A DNA stretch of 64,000 nucleotides from TPA_inf: Saccharomyces (lineage: Eukaryota), in assembly GCA_000146045.2 (NCBI GenBank), contig BK006940.2:192001-256000 (forward strand), read 5' to 3'. The stretch's first letter is position 1; each line of letters begins with the position of its first letter. This document shows positions 9,960 to 34,760 of this stretch, piece by piece. The position numbers and the translations under genes were made by a program. The notes under the pieces were generated by a model. That model ran no database searches. It saw only the letters and a program-made list of their open reading frames with translations, and was not told where the DNA came from.

Positions 9960-11433
9960 TTAAACTAGTTCAACGTAATTTGCTGGGAATATACCTTCTC
10001 TACCGTTGACTCTTCCGGTCCACCAGTCATTTTGAGAATCTGATTTTTTCAAAATTGTGATCACGTCACCCTTTCTGAATGGTAAATCTCCGGACTCTTC
10101 TCCTGCAAAGCTATATAATGCCACGGCCTTTGGAGAAGACGTGGATGGGGATGTTGGAGCAGTGAATCTGCCCTGACTAGTTTGCGGTGTTGAAGCGGAC
10201 GAGATTCTAGATTTAGAAAATCTGTTCGACAAGTCATCGACTTCACGGTCTTTTGTCCTATCTCTTCCATTCCCGCGTCTATACCCGGATTCATAATCAT
10301 CATCATAATCATCGTATTCATCATCAGCCCAACGATTTCTTGAAGAACGAGCCCTTGACTGAGCAGTTCCTGATCTTCTGTGGCTGGCATAATAACTTGA
10401 AGCTCCAGATGGGTCATCCAATTTACCACCACTACCGCCACTGTTGGTAGGAGCCAGTCTTGAATTCCTTGAATAGCCAGTACCATAATCATCATCGTCA
10501 TCATCATCGTCGAACGTATAACGAGAACCGCTTTGGGCTCTTCTCCTTGTGGATCTTGTGTTAGGTCTAGTGGAGGAAGCATCTGTAGAACTGAATGAAC
10601 TAGGAATGTCATTATAGTAATCGTCGTCGTCATAGTAATCGTCTTCGTCGTCATCGAAACTGCCACGACCACCGTTGGAGGGTCTGTAATTAAACGCCCT
10701 GGACTCTAAAACACGAAACAATGGATCAACTGCTGGAGGCGGTCTTATCCTACCAGACAAAATCATTTTCGCGGTACAATTGTCACCATAAAATTTTCTG
10801 TTAGCCTCTCTTCTTTCTATAATAGCCGAACCTTCCACAGAAACCCCTGCAAATAGACCTTTACTCTTAGAATAGGCAAAAACTGCAGCCACACCACCGG
10901 CGGAGGCTGATGCAGCTGCTTCTGCACTTCTACCAAGAGGCCCAGCAGAAACGGAGACGTTACCACCCAACGTGATGGTCCCAAATTCAGAAAACGACTT
11001 AACAGCATCCTGAGTATTTAAAATGAAAACAAAATCAGTCAATTCTATACCAACCATCCCACCGGCACCAGCACCTGCCATGGCAATGGCAGATGGAGCT
11101 GACCAAGTACCATCCTTTAATCTTGCGACAATCACACCAGAACCAGCTCTACCTGAAAATAGAAAACCTGCTTTTAAGATCGTTATGATAGCCAACCCTT
11201 TAGCTCTTTTCAAAACGTCTGGAGGAATGACTTGGTCCGCACCAAAAACTTGGTTTGGTTTGACAAAACTAGCCAAAATCTTCGCTGCTTTTCTTTATTA
11301 ATTGTTTATTACTAGTTAGTAAATGATGAACAAATTAAGGGAGAACTTTTTTAAAGGTTTCCCAGCCAAACCCGTATAAAACATACTTTGTCTCACTCTT
11401 TAAACTCCTTGGAATAGGATTGTTAATACCCAT
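9960..11433 (-). CDS. LSB3: Lsb3, an Ysc84-family actin-binding protein with a C-terminal SH3 domain, 459 aa. The gene is spliced: exon 1 is 11387..11433 (MGINNPIPRSLKSETK), the intron is 11293..11386, and exon 2 is 9960..11292.
   Basis: A minus-strand ATG at 11433 is followed by a GTATGT 5' splice site. A TACTAAC branchpoint is seen as gttagta on the plus strand near 11325. An AG acceptor lies at 11293-11294. The 94-nt intron fits the known size. The joined length is 1380 nt, giving 459 aa. An SH3 motif (ALYSFAGEESGDLPFRKGDVITIL...WWTG) is present. The track ORF's 'M' is really a TTG Leu codon. Confidence 0.88.
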
Positions 11434-11742: not shown

Positions 11743-12750
11743 TTATATATTGGCCCAAAAGGGATCATTAACGAATTGCGAAATGGGTAATCTCTTTACA
11801 GTTAACAGATTCTCTGGTGATTGGCTTTCCTCAAGGTAGCAAATATACTCTAATTGTAGCACGTCTACTATGTATTTCTTTACCTTGTCATAGCACACAC
11901 CCACTTGCGCCACGCCGTGTGCGTCATCACTTAGAACAAATCTGGATCCACAGTGCTTCTTGACCAGATTACATAAGGTTTTGCTGGGGTACGGCTCCTC
12001 GAGGCGCTTTCTTAATGCGGACGTATTGATTTCAATTGCGCCGCCATAGGAGTCTATAAATTGTAAATTTCTTACAACTGCATCGTATATTTCTGGCCAT
12101 TCACTGATGACGTCCAGTGAAGCTACAGGAACTCCGGTTTCTTCGTTGCAGTTGCCCGATTTCTGGTTTACTAGCATGTCATTGGGCAAAAATAATTTGT
12201 AAAGGTCGAAGTGACCCACGACCAACGGTTTAATATTGATCAGCATTTCGTACTGTGATTGGAAGTAAGACAGGAGAAAATGTTTCAAATTATCATTGAA
12301 GGAATGCAATGAATTGTACCATTGTTGTTGGTCGAAATCAATAGGGATCCCGTTGACGTGATGGACCGAACCCACACAAAACTTCAAAATATCATTATTC
12401 TCCTTCATGAGTCGCTTTGCATATTCGATATGAGCCATGTCACAACTTTCGATCTCCATTCCTATAATGAATTTAGTCCGCACATCGGGTCTATCAGCAT
12501 AACGAGTCTTGATTTCTTGCGCATGACTCATGAAATTCTTGAACGATGTTTCTAGCTTGGTTATGACTTCCTCAGGATTCTTGCCCAATGACTGCTCTTC
12601 GGGGTATATAAACTTGGCCTCAATTCTTGGTATGTGCTCTGTCAAACAGTACGTGTGAAAGTTGAGGTTGACCACTTGATCGACCACGGAATCCAAAGGG
12701 TCCGTACCGTGGGCACTATAGTCACCGGAGTGTGAATGGTGTGAGTGCAT
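11743..12750 (-). CDS. HIS2: Histidinol-phosphatase (PHP family), 335 aa
   Basis: 335-aa ORF with an MHSHHSHSGDY N-terminal His-rich PHP signature. Position matches YFR025C. Confidence 0.93.
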   Translation of the reverse strand: MHSHHSHSGDYSAHGTDPLDSVVDQVVNLNFHTYCLTEHIPRIEAKFIYPEEQSLGKNPEEVITKLETSFKNFMSHAQEIKTRYADRPDVRTKFIIGMEIESCDMAHIEYAKRLMKENNDILKFCVGSVHHVNGIPIDFDQQQWYNSLHSFNDNLKHFLLSYFQSQYEMLINIKPLVVGHFDLYKLFLPNDMLVNQKSGNCNEETGVPVASLDVISEWPEIYDAVVRNLQFIDSYGGAIEINTSALRKRLEEPYPSKTLCNLVKKHCGSRFVLSDDAHGVAQVGVCYDKVKKYIVDVLQLEYICYLEESQSPENLLTVKRLPISQFVNDPFWANI

Positions 12751-12923
12751 GACCTCGAGGATTTTTACTGAATTGTACGTATCAAGAAGTACTAAAATGT
12801 GTTTGAAAGGGAAAGATTGTACGGGAAATGGAAAATGTACATATAATATCCAGTATCATTTGAGTTGATAGAGATTATCTCTATAGATAGAGAGATTTGA
12901 CAAAAAAAATAAAAAAATTTAAA

Positions 12924-12996
12924 TGGACGAGTCCGGAATCGAACCGGAGACCTCTCCCATGCTAAGGGAGCGCGCTACCGACTACGCCACACGCCC
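12924..12996 (-). tRNA. tA(AGC)F: tRNA-Ala (anticodon AGC), 73 nt
   Basis: Reverse complement reads GGGCGTGTGGCGTAGTCGGTAGCGCGCTCCCTTAGCATGGGAGAGGTCTCCGGTTCGATTCCGGACTCGTCCA. It has a canonical cloverleaf with A and B boxes and an AGC anticodon. Confidence 0.9.
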
Positions 12997-13189
12997 GAAC
13001 GTTTGTTGAAATCTTCCAAACAGAAATGATACAGGTTTACTTTACAGCAAGACATTAGTAGTTTCATTAGCTTATCAACATGTATGAAACCGGCAAGATT
13101 GAAAGCTTGATTGCCCTTGACGAGCTACTCAAATGTGTAAATATCTGCACAATCAGTTTACACTCATGTTTCCGCGCTTTTACCCTCCA

Positions 13190-13525
13190 TCTAGATTAAA
13201 ATCTTATATGGATTATTTGGGATAAATAGCATTTAGTAAATCAAATTGATAAAAAAAAGAATAGCATTTAGGTATGCAGAATATACTAGAAGCTGTCCTC
13301 ACTGATCCTGAATCCAAAAAAGAGAATTCTACGTAATAATATTATCACCTCTTCCTCCATTTTATATGCTGTCATTCATTATCCTATTCCATTACCAATC
13401 CTTGCATTTCAGCCTCCATTAAATCCGATGGTTGTTTCTCAACTTTTATGCCATCTTCTTATACCCATATAATGATATATTAGTAGGAAGAAACACTAAT
13501 CGATAGATGATAATTATCATTTACC
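13190..13525 (-). mobile_element. Ty1/Ty2 delta solo LTR, about 335 bp, degenerate at its ends, lying about 200 bp upstream of tRNA-Ala
   Basis: Strong similarity to the reverse complement of the delta consensus. Examples are GGTATGCAGAATATACTAGAAG against GGTATACAGAATATACTAGAAG, and ATCAATCCTTGCATTTCAGCCTCCATTAAAT against ATCAATCCTTGCGTTTCAGCTTCCACTAAT. Boundaries are approximate. Confidence 0.5.
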
Positions 13526-13599
13526 TACGCATTCGTATTATCGTATTCGCAGCTAGAGGCCAGTGCAACCATATAGATATTGCTATTAACTTCATTGTA

Positions 13600-13735
13600 G
13601 CTAAAGCACCCTGGGTGTTAAGGAGAAACATCAATAAGAGAATAGTTTGTAGTATTCTGTGAAATTTTCGGTGACCATGGTCTTCAAGGAGAATTCTTTA
13701 GTATATTCTATGTATCTATAACTAATTTCCAAAAA
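13600..13735 (+). mobile_element. Partial delta LTR fragment (3' portion) abutting the 3' end of ULI1
   Basis: GGAGAATTCTTTAGTATATTCTATGTATCTATAACTAATTT resembles delta GGAGAACTTCTAGTATATTCTGTATACCTAATATT. Weaker similarity continues upstream. Confidence 0.35.
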
Positions 13736-13747
13736 ATGACATGTCAA

Positions 13748-14257
13748 TCACTTTCCAGAGCTATAAGATATATTCAGGTTTATCCCAAAAATATTTACAG
13801 AGAAATAACCCTTGCAAAACCTTTTGGTACACGAACAGGCCCCTTTAAAAGTTTCTTGGCAGTTTTTTTCGTCTTCCTTCTTTTCCGGCCATAGCATCGT
13901 TTGCGGATCGTTCAAACTCCTATTATCCGATGAGCTACCCAACTGCCCTCCCATTAGGTAGTGGTTATTAGGGCACTTATTGTCTCTTGTGGTGTTGTAG
14001 TAATGGTTAATATAATTTTCGAGCAAATAGAGTGCAACTTGCGGTTCGAGTTCAATAAGATTAATATCCCTCAATGACTCAGGAGGTCCATTCCAGGGAA
14101 TAGAAAGTAGTGCAGTTGCATACTGTTCATTAGTACCGTCTCCATTTTTGCCTCTGAGATTTGATGGCGGAAAAGCGACACATGAATTGTTGACCTGGAG
14201 TGCGCTCACTGTTACAATTAGTAAGGCCACGGTAATTGCTACTGCATAGGGCGTCAT
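13748..14257 (-). CDS. ULI1: Uli1, a small ER/secretory-pathway protein induced by the unfolded protein response, 169 aa from the first ATG. It has an N-terminal hydrophobic segment.
   Basis: The track ORF is 176 aa with a non-ATG start. The first Met (MTPYAVAITVALLIVTVSALQ...) gives 169 aa. Position between HIS2 and ECO1 matches YFR026C. Confidence 0.55.
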   Translation of the reverse strand: MTPYAVAITVALLIVTVSALQVNNSCVAFPPSNLRGKNGDGTNEQYATALLSIPWNGPPESLRDINLIELEPQVALYLLENYINHYYNTTRDNKCPNNHYLMGGQLGSSSDNRSLNDPQTMLWPEKKEDEKNCQETFKGACSCTKRFCKGYFSVNIFGINLNISYSSGK

Positions 14258-14779
14258 CACCTTTTCGAAATTTGACACTGCTAATTTGGCGCCAGTATAG
14301 AGTTTCTTTCTCTTGAATCCAATGAGATCATTATCCTAGTATAGAGCTTGTAAGTCCAAGCTGCACTTAAATATACAACGATCAGAAAAAACTCGTATAG
14401 TCTGTTGAAAATGCAACACGTATACCTCCGGAGAAGTATCTTTGGTTTTGATTTGCCGCGCAGCCTGTGTAAAATGGCGCACACAATCACGTTACTTGAA
14501 TCTCAGTTCAGAAGTTTCTTTCAACACAGCCAATTGCATTTAGTCTGCTATGCTTAATATTGTAGCTACTACGTGGCAAACATAGCTGCCCGAACTACTT
14601 TATGCGTACGTGTCCACAGCAATTTGTATAACGACTCAATCAAAATTCTCTCAAACACCTTCATGGGAATCTGTCGACAATGTAATCAGATCTCAGCCCA
14701 ATTGCCAGTATGTGTTCATATCTTATTCCGTGGCCGCCCCTCCAAAAAGCTTCAAAATACACTCACCAGGCTTACTTCT

Positions 14780-15146
14780 TGTTGGGAGAAGAACCGTTAT
14801 CGTTCACTTGATAATATTCCTACCAGTATGTTGTCCTATATGGAGTCATGAGCATACATGGTGCAAAATTATGGAATTAGCGCAATGAGTTTCAAACAGC
14901 AATTTGATCTTTTTATAAACACTGAAATGCCAGAATTGATAATGTAATAGGAAAAAAAAATGAAAAGATTCAAAACCGAAGATAAAATGAGATTATTTTT
15001 TTCTTTTATGTAGAAACATCGATTCGCTTCTGTGGGTTCCCATATCCTCGAGGAGAACTTCTAATATATTCTGTATAATTAATATTATAGCATTAACAAC
15101 GGTATAATCTCAGTCATTATCCCAAAATTCACCTATTTTCCCATCA
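14780..15146 (+). mobile_element. Diverged full-length delta solo LTR in the ULI1-ECO1 intergenic region
   Basis: Begins TGTTGGGAGAAG (delta starts TGTTGGAATAGA). The 3' half is highly similar to delta: CATATCCTCGAGGAGAACTTCTAATATATTCTGTATAATTAATATTATAGC and ...CCCAAAATTCACC. Confidence 0.55.
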
Positions 15147-15451
15147 TACCGATCTTTGCGAATACTTGAGCATGTAAATCAGAGATTCTATGTAACAGCT
15201 GCCCAGAAACCAGAAAACGTCTCTTAACCACTTCCATTGTTGGCATGTTGAAACCTCCTGCCGCCTTGATCATCCTTCGACTTAGGGAAGAATCTTAACA
15301 AATGAAATTTAACGTCAACGCGTAATAGAAAAAAAGCCTTTCGCGTACTGTAATCAGTAATAATACATAAGGAGATGCCAGCTACAACGGACATCAACAT
15401 ATATCTATGTTTACATATTAGGGTTCAACAGAATATAAATCGTTGCACAAA

Positions 15452-16297
15452 ATGAAAGCTAGGAAATCGCAGAGAAAAGCGGGCAGTAAACCAAATCTTA
15501 TCCAGTCTAAATTGCAAGTTAATAATGGTTCGAAATCGAATAAAATAGTCAAGTGTGATAAATGTGAGATGTCATATTCCTCGACATCAATAGAAGATCG
15601 CGCCATCCACGAGAAATACCACACTTTACAGCTGCATGGACGTAAATGGTCGCCGAATTGGGGTTCTATAGTATACACAGAGCGAAACCATTCAAGGACG
15701 GTGCATCTATCAAGATCGACAGGGACAATAACGCCATTGAACTCCTCACCTTTGAAAAAAAGTAGTCCGTCTATTACCCATCAGGAGGAGAAGATTGTAT
15801 ATGTGAGACCAGATAAGTCGAATGGTGAAGTCCGAGCCATGACGGAGATAATGACACTAGTGAATAACGAGCTGAATGCGCCACACGATGAGAATGTCAT
15901 TTGGAACAGTACCACAGAAGAAAAAGGCAAAGCGTTTGTATACATAAGAAATGACAGGGCGGTCGGAATAATAATTATAGAGAACCTTTATGGGGGCAAT
16001 GGTAAAACATCTAGTCGTGGACGTTGGATGGTTTATGATTCTAGAAGATTGGTACAGAATGTGTACCCCGATTTTAAGATTGGCATATCGAGAATTTGGG
16101 TGTGCAGGACAGCAAGGAAGTTGGGTATCGCAACCAAATTGATTGACGTTGCAAGAGAAAATATTGTTTACGGTGAAGTTATTCCTAGGTACCAGGTAGC
16201 ATGGTCGCAACCCACAGACAGCGGTGGAAAACTGGCTAGCAAATACAACGGCATTATGCATAAATCAGGCAAGTTACTATTGCCGGTATACATATGA
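15452..16297 (+). CDS. ECO1: Eco1/Ctf7, a cohesin acetyltransferase with an N-terminal C2H2 zinc finger and a C-terminal GNAT fold, 281 aa
   Basis: The track ORF starts at a TTG at 15443. The first ATG at 15452 (MKARKSQRKAG) gives 281 aa. A zinc finger (CDKCEMSY...HEKYH) is present. Confidence 0.88.
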   Translation: MKARKSQRKAGSKPNLIQSKLQVNNGSKSNKIVKCDKCEMSYSSTSIEDRAIHEKYHTLQLHGRKWSPNWGSIVYTERNHSRTVHLSRSTGTITPLNSSPLKKSSPSITHQEEKIVYVRPDKSNGEVRAMTEIMTLVNNELNAPHDENVIWNSTTEEKGKAFVYIRNDRAVGIIIIENLYGGNGKTSSRGRWMVYDSRRLVQNVYPDFKIGISRIWVCRTARKLGIATKLIDVARENIVYGEVIPRYQVAWSQPTDSGGKLASKYNGIMHKSGKLLLPVYI

Positions 16298-16412: not shown

Positions 16413-18068
16413 TTATTTCTTGATGGAGCCACTTATTTTTCTTATACCACCGGCGGCGCTTGTAGTCCTTCTCCCTGACGTTACTCTCCTATTCTTGGGC
16501 AATAGTTGTCTTAGTATGGTATCATCTGCGGCATTATTGATGTTCGTTGCGCTGGGTTCGTTATCTTCCATTCGGGACGATGAAGCAGAGGAGATATCAT
16601 TTTTCTTGCGCGAAACTTTGGGATAATGATTACTTGTGCCGTTGGTATCCTGCATGGATTCGTCATCTGAGTTGTTGCTTTCTATTACTACCTTCCTATT
16701 CGCATGGGAAGTTGGATTACGATTATTGTTGATATCTTCTATAGTATTAGAACCGTTTTGGCCCTTTCTCGGCTGACCAGGCGAAGTCTGTGGGACGGCT
16801 GAGCTCTTGAATGAATTACTTCCATTATTCGCCGTAGAAGGTTGGCTCGAATTTCTGGCACTAAGCGCCCCATGACCGTTGGATGGCGGCGTCATGGTTA
16901 AATCTCTTAATTCACCTTCAATGTTATTTTGCGCAACCCTCTTGTCGTCTTTAAGTTTCTTTTTTTGTAAGCGGTATTCTTCTAAACTTATTAAGGGATA
17001 TAAGCCGCCAATGGCCTCACTAGGCTTCAAAGAAATTCTGGTTGTGTACTTCCATTCTCTAAAATCATTCTGGTGTAAATATAACCAATGCTGTTGAGGG
17101 CCAACGACCATTCCCGGCCTTATAAACCTTAAGAAGCCAATACACTCGTTAGCGGTAAATCCATACGTGTATATTAAGTGAGCACCAATTAAACAACCAG
17201 TTCTACCTAGCCCAGCCTTACAGTGCACAGCAATTTTACCTCCCCTTTTAATTATCGTTTCAGCAGCACCAACAAAGTTTTTTACAATGGAAAGATCAGG
17301 ACATGTACCATCTTCGAAAATTAGATCCAAATGTTGAATGCCAATGTCTTCAAAATGCTTTTTATTATATAAATGAGAATTCAACCTTACCACTAATTGG
17401 ACGTTATTGTTGGCGAAAAAATTCAGAACTGACTTAAACGGCTGGTTCAAATGTGAAGATTTGGTAGCGAGATAGCCCTTTGGATGGTCCTCTTGTGGTG
17501 ACGCAAATGCAATAAAATCTGGGGTGAGTACATTGAAGTCTCCAAACTCCACGTGTTCGTATTTCTCGTAACTCTCCAAATTGAAGGAATGCAAATCAAT
17601 AAGGCCTTTTTCCTTAGCCCTCCAAACGCCATAAACCACATCTTGAATTGTGATTTCGAAATCCGCATTAGAATAACCGGCATCTCTAAATGGCATGAAG
17701 GGAGGGTCTACTTGCGCCAACGGCTGAAGCACTTGATGCGGAGTCCATGCCTGAACGAGGATCATATAACAGCAAAGCATACATGCGGCGTTAGCACGTT
17801 GTCTGGTCGATGCAGATGAATAGAAAACAACGGCTTTATTGGCATTTTCTGGGTCATTCAAGATTTCATGGAAAATAACGGCAAAACGATATAGATGTCC
17901 AATGTTCATGGGACCGAAATCCAAATGGAAACTGTTGTAAAAGATTGCGTCCTCCACGGTAAAAAACACCAGCTCATCAGTATCTTCCGGCGTGTAATCA
18001 TATGCACCGAGATATACTCTGCCTCGCAGGAACTCGATCGTGTTGTCGAGGTATACACTCCTACGCAT
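16413..18068 (-). CDS. CDC14: Cdc14, a dual-specificity protein phosphatase that acts in mitotic exit, 551 aa
   Basis: 551-aa ORF with the catalytic HCKAGLGRTG P-loop. Confidence 0.93.
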   Translation of the reverse strand: MRRSVYLDNTIEFLRGRVYLGAYDYTPEDTDELVFFTVEDAIFYNSFHLDFGPMNIGHLYRFAVIFHEILNDPENANKAVVFYSSASTRQRANAACMLCCYMILVQAWTPHQVLQPLAQVDPPFMPFRDAGYSNADFEITIQDVVYGVWRAKEKGLIDLHSFNLESYEKYEHVEFGDFNVLTPDFIAFASPQEDHPKGYLATKSSHLNQPFKSVLNFFANNNVQLVVRLNSHLYNKKHFEDIGIQHLDLIFEDGTCPDLSIVKNFVGAAETIIKRGGKIAVHCKAGLGRTGCLIGAHLIYTYGFTANECIGFLRFIRPGMVVGPQQHWLYLHQNDFREWKYTTRISLKPSEAIGGLYPLISLEEYRLQKKKLKDDKRVAQNNIEGELRDLTMTPPSNGHGALSARNSSQPSTANNGSNSFKSSAVPQTSPGQPRKGQNGSNTIEDINNNRNPTSHANRKVVIESNNSDDESMQDTNGTSNHYPKVSRKKNDISSASSSRMEDNEPSATNINNAADDTILRQLLPKNRRVTSGRRTTSAAGGIRKISGSIKK

Positions 18069-34687: not shown

Positions 34688-34760
34688 AGCCCTGTAGGGG
34701 GCTCGAACCCCTAACCTTATGATTAAGAGTCATACGCGCTACCGATTGCGCCAACAAGGC
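34688..34760 (-). tRNA. tK(CUU)F: tRNA-Lys (anticodon CUU), 73 nt
   Basis: Reverse complement reads GCCTTGTTGGCGCAATCGGTAGCGCGTATGACTCTTAATCATAAGGTTAGGGGTTCGAGCCCCCTACAGGGCT. Anticodon loop is CTCTTAATC. Confidence 0.9.

Follow-up and report, generated by a model that had tools for sequence, protein, structure and literature searches.

Why do several Ty long terminal repeat (LTR) remnants lie around one small gene, ULI1, on S. cerevisiae chromosome VI, and has any of them contributed to that gene? A first-pass annotation of 64,000 nucleotides of this chromosome (the window, in whose positions coordinates are given below) described a tRNA-anchored Ty integration hotspot with three delta remnants bracketing ULI1. 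The locus is very probably a Pol III-targeted retrotransposon landing zone, with LTRs around an older ULI1. The reference haplotype comprises a Ty3p-type LTR at the tRNA gene, two old deltas in inverted orientation (A and B) and a distant, fixed delta (C):

12924-12996, minus strand: tRNA-Ala(AGC), Pol III gene and integration target (ARAGORN; Rfam RF00005, 59.5 bits)
13004-13253, plus strand: Ty3p-type (Ty3-like) solo LTR remnant, LTR positions ~1-260 of 365 (z-scores, nhmmer)
13246-~13531, minus strand: delta A, truncated Ty1/Ty2 solo LTR, LTR positions ~1-289 (z = 40, nhmmer)
~13537-13750, plus strand: delta B, ancient Ty1/Ty2 LTR remnant with internal deletions, lying antisense to ULI1 (orthology)
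13748-14257, minus strand: ULI1 (YFR026C) coding sequence, 169 aa, N-terminal signal/TM segment (ORF; Uli1p identity)
14258-14779, minus strand: unique ULI1 promoter, with three UPRE-2 cores TACGTG (14417-14422, 14570-14575 and 14607-14612)
14780-15146, plus strand: delta C (YFRWdelta10), full-length Ty1-type solo LTR, ~26% diverged (z-scores, nhmmer)

LTR references were the published Ty LTRs of Carr et al. 2012 (File S1), each score being a Smith-Waterman z-score relative to 100 dinucleotide shuffles. Control segments (the ULI1 ORF, its promoter and the region upstream of ECO1) gave |z| ≤ 2.3 against these references. Alignment was strong for A, C and the Ty3p-type remnant, and B was recognized via its orthologue. 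In an nhmmer scan of the 64-kb window, LTR matches at E ≤ 1 were confined to this locus; the second tRNA gene of the window is without LTRs and no other intergenic region has any. An ungapped repeat finder applied to the whole window did not link the LTR segments, which are too diverged and indel-rich, and the conserved delta box had 0 exact matches in viral contigs.

ARAGORN and Rfam agree on a minus-strand tRNA gene exactly where one had been proposed, with an AGC anticodon in its cloverleaf and a score above the Rfam gathering threshold. Lying beside HIS2, it is 99-100% conserved in S. kudriavzevii, S. arboricola and S. uvarum. The secure core of the neighbouring Ty3p-type remnant (13085-13253) scored z = 24.8 against TY3p and 24.2 against TY3, and nhmmer favoured TY3p (E = 2.9e-12; 41.6 bits, vs 34.1 for TY3). 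The remnant is listed as chrVI_s157+_TY3_1p, 205102-205241, equivalent to window positions 13114-13253 (Carr et al. 2012, PMC3511429); its assignment to Ty3p and not Ty3 draws on the phylogeny in that study and on the 5' part described next, the core being equal for Ty3 and Ty3p and the present scores favouring Ty3p slightly. A decayed 5' part appears to start with TGTTG at 13004, which puts it 7 nt from the 5' end of the mature tRNA. LTR positions 1-70 align weakly to this segment (13004-13090; z = 5.3, 0/500 shuffles; only z = 2.3 for Ty3), which suggests insertion a few bp upstream of the tRNA start, as is typical of Ty3-type elements. This LTR adjoining the tRNA gene had been overlooked in the first-pass annotation.

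A minus-orientation delta had instead been placed at 13190-13525. The delta itself is real and on the minus strand, at ~13246-13531, but the proposed interval was composite: 13085-13253 is Ty3/Ty3p-type sequence on the plus strand, so 13190-13245 belongs to the Ty3p solo LTR. Delta A (tested as 13246-13536) scored z = 40.2 against TY1 and 39.7 against TY2, both on the minus strand, with 199/281 identities; nhmmer placed LTR positions 16-278 at 13267-13516 (E ~1e-23). It lacks the 3' ~45 nt, has a decayed 5' end, adjoins the Ty3p fragment and starts ~250 bp from the tRNA gene by alignment (271 bp by nhmmer). It is listed as chrVI_st80-_TY1, 205256-205503 (Carr et al. 2012, PMC3511429).

For delta C, the coordinates first proposed for a diverged plus-orientation delta were essentially exact. 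It scored z = 49.5 against TY1 on the plus strand, with LTR positions 2-335 at 14781-15139 (nhmmer, E = 1e-27) and ends TGTTGG...CCCATCA, and separates the divergent promoters of ULI1 and ECO1. It is listed as chrVI_s159+_TY1 / YFRWdelta10 and fixed in 26/26 strains (Carr et al. 2012, PMC3511429), although that annotation covers only 217 bp of it. Delta C was present in all S. cerevisiae-type haplotypes examined and absent from the assemblies L023, L024 and L026 and from S. kudriavzevii, S. arboricola and S. uvarum; it is S. cerevisiae-specific and fixed. It lies 1785 bp from the tRNA gene, and still ~1.1 kb once the other LTRs are subtracted. As this is beyond the Ty1 window of ~1 kb upstream of a Pol III gene (PMC5911963), within which A and B fall, delta C is not clearly tRNA-anchored.

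No 5-bp target duplication was found for A, B or C. None survives around C (CTTCT vs TACCG), and A and B have other LTRs on their flanks; such loss is expected because these are old or recombined solo LTRs. Young polymorphic copies at this locus (in assemblies L015 and L021) have perfect LTR ends.

Tested alone (13537-13755), delta B scored z = 5.4 against TY1 and 3.8 against TY2 on the plus strand, with other families and strands ≤ 0. It was not reported at E ≤ 1 in the 64-kb nhmmer scan and has no entry in Files S2/S3 of Carr et al. Its LTR similarity is accepted because the orthologous copy on an S. paradoxus-like contig (L026:6575-6835), which also abuts the ULI1 stop, is better preserved (z = 15-16 against TY1/TY2; nhmmer E = 2.5e-12). 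Similarity to Ty1/Ty2 LTRs extends over most of their ~332-338 bp directly in A and C, and in B only through this orthologue. The 211 nt past the S. cerevisiae ULI1 stop match the equivalent L026 stretch with z = 31.6 and 68% identity, both copies have three internal gaps in common relative to young deltas, and one continuous alignment runs in both lineages from the ULI1 ORF through the stop to the end of the element. A plus-orientation delta fragment had been proposed to abut the stop at 13600-13735; orthology confirms it and carries it farther, to ~13537. Delta B starts ~540 bp from the tRNA gene and lacks the 5' ~15 nt, and at least ~24 nt of its 3' end are unaccounted for. The orthologous positions indicate that it was inserted antisense at the ULI1 3' end before S. 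cerevisiae and the S. paradoxus-like lineage diverged.

ULI1 had been described as a small, lineage-restricted gene with a signal/TM-like segment, and this description holds. Its 169-aa product is 98-100% identical to proteins named Uli1p, and matches no Pfam family, and an exhaustive profile search over 1.84 billion representative proteins turned up only 5 relatives; a 19-aa signal sequence has been reported (PMC4508530). The coding sequence showed no similarity to any of the LTR references (|z| ≤ 1.8). Orthologues lie between ECO1 and the tRNA-Ala gene in four sister species or hybrid subgenomes and in two further lineages. Comparison across species bore out variable presence and absence of LTRs, but ULI1 is syntenic also in species without these particular LTRs; the LTRs came to the gene and not the reverse. 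ULI1 is an older, Saccharomyces-restricted gene that predates them.

L026, L024 and S. arboricola, whose promoters are LTR-free, retain UPRE-2 motifs at two of the positions in the unique promoter, ~-155 and ~-315. By the published UPRE-2 definition (PMC509306), the TACGTG cores and their conservation across species mark ULI1 as a predicted target of the unfolded protein response (UPR), and DTT induction of YFR026C has been reported (PMC509300). UPR control of ULI1 would thus come from conserved UPRE-2 elements in unique promoter DNA and not from the LTRs, and the suggestion of LTR-influenced regulation found no support. A candidate UPRE-3 8-mer (AGGACAAC) occurs once inside delta C; PMC509306 gave no confirmation of it and it was given no weight.

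Independent additional LTRs occur upstream of the tRNA gene in other S. cerevisiae assemblies. They include a Ty1 LTR 178 bp upstream (L015; target duplication GAAAC/GAAAC), another in the opposite orientation 78-80 bp upstream (L021; ATAAG/ATAAG), a Ty2-type LTR nested in delta A 306 bp upstream and, in L020, a Ty3 sigma 15-16 bp upstream that is 99.4% identical to the reference. Ty3 fragments lie 17-21 bp upstream in compared assemblies; one variant (L025) has acquired a young Ty1 LTR within the promoter of ULI1, 1019 bp from the tRNA gene, and a deletion allele, of the L020 type that also carries the Ty3 LTR, lacks A, B, the Ty3p fragment and the 3' part of ULI1. Identity to the references is 96-99% for the young copies. 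A highly divergent haplotype is also among the natural alleles, and in sister species the interval is occupied by separate LTR sets, among them a full Ty4 tau as well as fragments of Ty3p. The assemblies were picked for differing neighbourhoods, and these occurrences are not allele frequencies. They show directly that the tRNA-Ala gene is a hotspot and that the locus is structurally polymorphic. The predicted strain-to-strain polymorphism is thus borne out by independent Ty1, Ty2-type and Ty3 insertions 16-306 bp upstream and by the ULI1-truncating deletion. The idea of a tRNA-anchored hotspot stands for these insertions, at family-typical distances, and for A and B, but not clearly for C. Since C and the L025 delta lie at or beyond ~1 kb, not every element need be tRNA-directed.

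By the mechanism established for these Ty families, the transcribed tRNA-Ala(AGC) gene would recruit Ty integrases. Ty3-type integrase would be brought to the Pol III start site via TFIIIB, and those of Ty1, Ty2 and Ty4 to nucleosomal DNA within ~1 kb upstream via Pol III subunits. Solo and truncated LTRs would remain once elements had inserted repeatedly and then undergone LTR-LTR recombination and small deletions.

The cluster might instead reflect tolerance, elements landing widely and persisting only in a harmless interval made up of a tRNA gene, a dispensable gene and divergent promoters. The distances of C and the L025 insertion, both more than 1 kb from the tRNA gene, would fit this, as would the truncation of ULI1 in many natural strains (127-130-aa alleles), which suggests weak constraint. 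It is nevertheless an unlikely explanation, as the young insertions at 16, 80, 178 and 306 bp upstream fit family-specific target preferences and as the second tRNA gene and all the other intergenic regions of the 64 kb lack LTRs. Targeting and tolerance are mutually compatible. LTRs might also regulate ULI1, with delta C acting as a stress-responsive enhancer or as the distal start of a 5'-extended isoform. An NMD-sensitive, 5'-extended ULI1 transcript does exist, its start site not being reported (bioRxiv 10.1101/2025.08.15.670413), and delta C is located 523-890 nt ahead of the ATG, with 13 upstream ATGs between it and the ORF. Against this, the UPRE-2 cores are outside C and conserved in species that lack it, and C itself is antisense to ULI1 and ~26% decayed, leaving a regulatory role improbable.

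An LTR origin of delta B might be doubted on the grounds that B alone reaches only z = 5.4 against TY1 and is missing from the RepeatMasker-based annotation; its delta likeness would then be due to chance and the LTR in L026 to an independent insertion. This is very improbable given the single alignment spanning ORF, stop and whole element in both lineages, the z = 31.6 match strictly downstream of the stop, the three common internal gaps and the fact that plus-strand Ty1/Ty2 was the sole scorer in 12 family-by-strand tests. Even harder to sustain is a derivation of ULI1 itself from LTR or Ty sequence, or its carriage as a composite element between the plus-strand deltas B and C, as might be read from an orphan gene flanked by two elements in the same orientation. 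Neither ORF nor promoter has LTR similarity (|z| ≤ 2.3), species without C also have orthologues at this ECO1-tRNA-HIS2 position, and the ages of B and C differ greatly, B being common to the S. paradoxus-like lineage and C confined to S. cerevisiae. Synteny effectively refutes this origin.

What the LTRs may have given ULI1 is its 3' end. From the stop codon onward the DNA is LTR-derived for ~210 bp; therefore the 3' UTR and terminator should be LTR-derived, and this geometry supports the earlier suggestion to that effect. Delta B probably supplies the ULI1 3' UTR, poly(A) signals and terminator. Candidate poly(A) elements inside it are TTTTTT at +12, TACATA at +34 and AATATACTAAAGAA at ~+41 from the stop; as delta B is antisense, the LTR's own poly(A) signal would not be the one used. 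ULI1 extends 8 residues past the conserved core in S. uvarum, 24 in S. kudriavzevii and 35 in S. arboricola, and 3-4 in the B-bearing lineages. It is conceivable, if only tentatively, that insertion of delta B created the present 3' end by cutting off a longer ancestral tail, and now provides the 3' UTR and poly(A) signals. A weaker addition to this proposal is that delta C hosts the distal start of the 5'-extended isoform. Two related ideas were rejected. The stop TGA is the reverse complement of the LTR-terminal TCA, but with ~24 nt of the LTR end unaccounted for, and with the last codons before the stop aligning to the conserved core of other species, derivation of the stop from the LTR was discarded. 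So was an age for B greater than the S. arboricola/S. kudriavzevii split: the antisense deltas downstream of ULI1 in these species keep segments that are deleted in S. cerevisiae and L026, and score far better against young LTRs.

The significance of the locus is small. Ty LTR pile-up upstream of tRNA genes is textbook biology, and the cluster is ordinary and largely annotated already, 3/4 of its elements being in the published re-annotation (Carr et al. 2012), one under its SGD name. The local gain is a corrected map, in which the Ty3p-type LTR reaches the tRNA gene and the delta A claim proves composite. Of modest novelty is an unannotated ancient delta forming the ULI1 3' flank. The natural alleles (insertions, the ULI1-truncating deletion and the divergent haplotype) could form a series for testing LTR effects on ULI1 and ECO1 expression.

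Ty1/Ty2 delta LTRs were reportedly annotated genome-wide by Kim and colleagues in 1998. Deltas A, B and C conform to the Ty1/Ty2 consensus, like the solo LTRs annotated upstream of tRNA genes throughout the genome (Carr et al. 2012, PMC3511429), and A and B are < 1 kb upstream of a tRNA gene; in contrast to that catalogue, delta B is an addition and delta C lies 1.8 kb from the tRNA. All three resemble 'inactive clade' deltas in being degenerate, solo or truncated, and fixed. The element at 13004-13253 is Ty3-like with its 5' end toward the tRNA, as are Ty3 sigma and Ty3p at Pol III start sites, but is a degenerate fragment cut at ~position 260 by delta A. Host genes with transposon-derived 3' UTRs and poly(A) signals are familiar, and mammals and plants provide well-known cases of LTR exaptation. 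ULI1 likewise has LTR DNA starting at its stop codon, although its LTR is antisense and use as a terminator is predicted from position. Classical Ty1 hotspots occur near tRNA genes and pre-existing LTRs, for example on chromosome III. The evidence at the tRNA-Ala gene comes from natural variation, and it likewise reveals repeated multi-family insertions, nested LTRs and LTR-mediated rearrangements at a single tRNA gene.

The first-pass annotation's proposal that three delta (Ty1/Ty2-type LTR) remnants, A, B and C, bracket ULI1 (YFR026C) beside a tRNA-Ala(AGC) gene on Saccharomyces cerevisiae chromosome VI described something real and was largely correct in its interpretation. An ungapped repeat finder left the segments unconnected; gapped comparison related 13150-13560 to 14760-15170 in inverted orientation (E = 1.8e-13). 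LTR references were taken from young insertions at the same locus in S. cerevisiae assemblies reached via the HIS2 protein (96% identical to TY1-LTR) and from the published Ty1-Ty5 and Ty3p (Ty3-like) LTRs of Carr et al. 2012 (File S1; PMC3511429), whose sequences and coordinates fit the window once 191,988 is subtracted from their sacCer2 positions. Smith-Waterman z-scores, each from 100 dinucleotide shuffles, were computed for every segment against both strands of these six families, and all three proposed deltas matched Ty1/Ty2-type LTRs. The ULI1 ORF, the ULI1 promoter and the region upstream of ECO1 showed no similarity to any of the six families on either strand (|z| ≤ 2.3). Features are as follows, with HIS2, ECO1 and CDC14 named from database proteins of 98-100% identity.

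11743-12750, minus strand: HIS2 ORF
12924-12996, minus strand: tRNA-Ala(AGC), as proposed; found by both ARAGORN and Rfam
13094-13255, plus strand: Ty3-like LTR (TY3p z = 24.8, TY3 z = 24.2)
13246-13536, minus strand: delta A (TY1 z = 40.2, TY2 z = 39.7, both minus)
13537-13755 as tested, ~13537-13750 final, plus strand: delta B (TY1 z = 5.4, TY2 z = 3.8, both plus)
13748-14257, minus strand: ULI1, 169-aa ORF (database proteins 98-100% identical are Uli1p)
14417-14422, 14570-14575 and 14607-14612: UPRE-2 cores (TACGTG) in the unique ULI1 promoter, within < 200 bp
14780-15146, plus strand: delta C (TY1 plus z = 49.5)
15452-16297, plus strand: ECO1 ORF
16413-18068, minus strand: CDC14 ORF

Across the whole 64 kb, nhmmer LTR matches were confined to this locus. 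Unlike the crowded tRNA-Ala locus, the second tRNA gene, tRNA-Lys(CTT) (34688-34760, minus strand), has no Ty LTR detectable near it within the window.

By itself delta B is marginal (z ≤ 0 against every other LTR family and strand) and the comparative evidence is decisive. One contig (L004/L026) is considered S. paradoxus-like because its CDC14 is 92.2% identical to the window, versus 84-85% in S. kudriavzevii, S. arboricola and S. uvarum. Its ECO1 is 89.8% identical, its ULI1 orthologue has 53% protein identity and it also carries a well-preserved Ty3p LTR. Directly 3' of its ULI1 stop lies an antisense delta (LTR positions 16-325; nhmmer E = 2.5e-12, z = 15-16). A single unbroken alignment starts in the ULI1 ORF, crosses the stop and the whole element and reaches window 13537, the sequence strictly 3' of the stop is 68% identical (z = 31.6), and both elements show the same three internal gaps when set against young deltas. 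These results make B the decayed orthologue of this delta, and the insertion behind it predates the split of S. cerevisiae from the S. paradoxus-like lineage. Antisense deltas also lie downstream of ULI1 in S. arboricola and S. kudriavzevii; as these retain segments deleted in B and score far better against young LTRs, they are treated as separate copies. A plus-strand delta had been proposed at the ULI1 stop, and this stands, with greater extent and age than stated. Delta B is missing from the published annotation and, as the 3' flank of ULI1, is a modest new point.

The ULI1 stop codon marks the start of LTR-derived DNA, which runs for ~210 bp. Candidate yeast 3'-end elements (TTTTTT at +12, TACATA at +34 and AATATACTAAAGAA at about +41) all fall within the best-conserved box of the LTR, present there as an antisense copy. 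Because LTR DNA begins at the stop and holds these elements, the geometry argues strongly for an LTR-derived ULI1 terminator. In the two B-bearing lineages the conserved core GYFS.T.FG..L..SFN is followed by a stop within 3-4 residues; 8 residues follow it in S. uvarum, 24 in S. kudriavzevii and 35 in S. arboricola. This is compatible with, and not proof of, shortening of the C-terminal tail by the B insertion. The final ~24 nt of B's LTR are untraceable, and later insertions have overwritten any ancestral tail that may have been displaced.

For delta A the proposed family and strand were right; the lower ~55 nt (13190-13245) belong to the Ty3-like LTR, so the segment as drawn was composite. 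A truncated TY1 (st80, minus) is published at 13268-13515 (PMC3511429). The Ty3-like LTR, absent from the first-pass annotation and added here, is listed in the same re-annotation as TY3_1p s157 (plus) at 13114-13253. It probably extends to TGTTG at 13004, leaving 7 nt to the mature tRNA end; Ty3p positions 1-70 align there (z = 5.3, 0/500 shuffles; Ty3 z = 2.3). The coordinates proposed for delta C were exact. It is published as YFRWdelta10 (TY1 s159, plus) at 14922-15138 (PMC3511429), only 217 bp, and the present alignment covers LTR positions 2-335. It is a delta, but at 1785 bp it lies outside the usual tRNA-proximal window.

With tblastn, ULI1 orthologues turned up in the ECO1-tRNA-Ala interval of S. 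arboricola, S. kudriavzevii and S. uvarum (25-36% identity), and likewise in the S. paradoxus-like contig (L026 stops short of the tRNA) and a divergent haplotype (L023-L025). HIS2 adjoins tRNA-Ala in those three species and in L023-L025. Delta C is absent from all of these loci, and the gene predates the LTRs. Its proposed lineage restriction agrees with two independent papers calling it genus-restricted and with a profile search run exhaustively over 1.84 billion representative proteins, which found only five family members.

LTR-influenced regulation of ULI1, also proposed, found no support. Delta C contains a single AGGACAAC 8-mer (14829-14836), which may be a UPRE-3 and was given no weight. 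The UPRE-2 core (PMC509306) occurs 19 times in the window (roughly one per 3.4 kb), and its positions near -155 and -315 are seen again in promoters that lack LTRs: those of S. arboricola, the divergent haplotype and the S. paradoxus-like contig. YFR026C is strongly induced by DTT (PMC509300), with no link to an LTR. A 5'-extended, NMD-sensitive isoform is described in a preprint that does not give its start site (bioRxiv 10.1101/2025.08.15.670413); a possible role for delta C in it is unsupported.

The predicted hotspot and structural polymorphism were confirmed by Ty1, Ty2-type and Ty3 insertions at differing distances in other assemblies. These were chosen for differing neighbourhoods and therefore give no allele frequencies.

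LTRs at the locus (distances in bp upstream of the tRNA 5' end)
Reference haplotype: Ty3p 8 (secure core 89); A ~250 (alignment) to 271 (nhmmer); B ~540; C 1785
Other S. cerevisiae-labelled assemblies, Ty3-type: Ty3 at 16; Ty3 fragments at 17-21
The same, Ty1: 78-80, 178 and 1019 (ULI1 promoter)
The same, Ty2-type: 306, nested in A
S. paradoxus-like contig L026 (span 1.2 kb): B orthologue, second delta fragment, two Ty3p fragments and a full Ty4 tau (E = 1.5e-66)

Two 332-bp TG...CA elements have perfect 5-bp duplications (GAAAC in L015, ATAAG in L021), and L020 carries a 340-bp Ty3 sigma element 15-16 bp from the tRNA (99.4% identical to TY3-LTR). In L020 (9280-9760), deletion between 10-nt microhomologies (GTAGCTC[A/G]TC) has removed window ~13122-13940, taking out deltas A and B, the greater part of the Ty3p fragment and the final ~60 codons of ULI1; a 127-aa product is left. 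This type is one common allele; many strains have annotated Uli1 proteins of similar length (127-129 aa). The sole Ty3p copy tabulated as 'polymorphic' by Carr et al. is the present copy, with a secondary deletion in RM11-1a (PMC3511429).

Other rearrangements were also seen. L023-L025 (S. cerevisiae-labelled; CDC14 99.6% identical) carry a divergent block reaching from the 5' region of ECO1 to that of HIS2 (L023:6700-12000, L024:6900-9200, L025:6900-9200; window ~12500-15900). Over ULI1 and its promoter its identity to the window is only 68-75%. The block includes ECO1 5' coding sequence in L023 (~88-90%), encodes a truncated Uli1 of 122-130 aa and is about as far from the S. paradoxus-like contig as from the window. 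Introgression from an unsampled lineage is one possible origin, an old divergent haplotype another. L023 (8654-11320) contains a tandem duplication of 1093 bp (99.8% identical) between ULI1 and tRNA-Ala; its 207-aa ORF matches Pfam DUF6736 (E = 1.8e-18), and the insert is non-Ty cargo at the same hotspot. In the BJ4 assembly (L001, LR813522.2; 5150-7550) the locus is rearranged, either really or by assembly artefact: window 14416-14709 is missing, as are tRNA-Ala and the first 385 nt of HIS2, ULI1 (nt 1-433), B and part of A are partially duplicated in tandem, and a younger Ty2-type delta is present (E = 2.8e-67). BJ4 is also missing 359 bp of the window in the region of LSB3, a Ysc84-family gene (11005-11363 vs L001:8549-8550), which may be intron presence/absence or an assembly or annotation difference. 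In S. uvarum (L010:3700-6750) the ECO1-ULI1 gap is ~3 kb, versus ~620-670 bp in other species without delta C; the extra DNA includes a repeat of part of the ECO1 5'/upstream region (about 5977-6185) as well as a delta-like LTR (4704-4983).

The set of natural structural alleles is a modest new point. The build-up of LTRs here is a textbook phenomenon, mostly annotated already, and the probable start of the Ty3p LTR, 7 nt from the tRNA, is at the canonical Ty3-type target position (PMC5911963).
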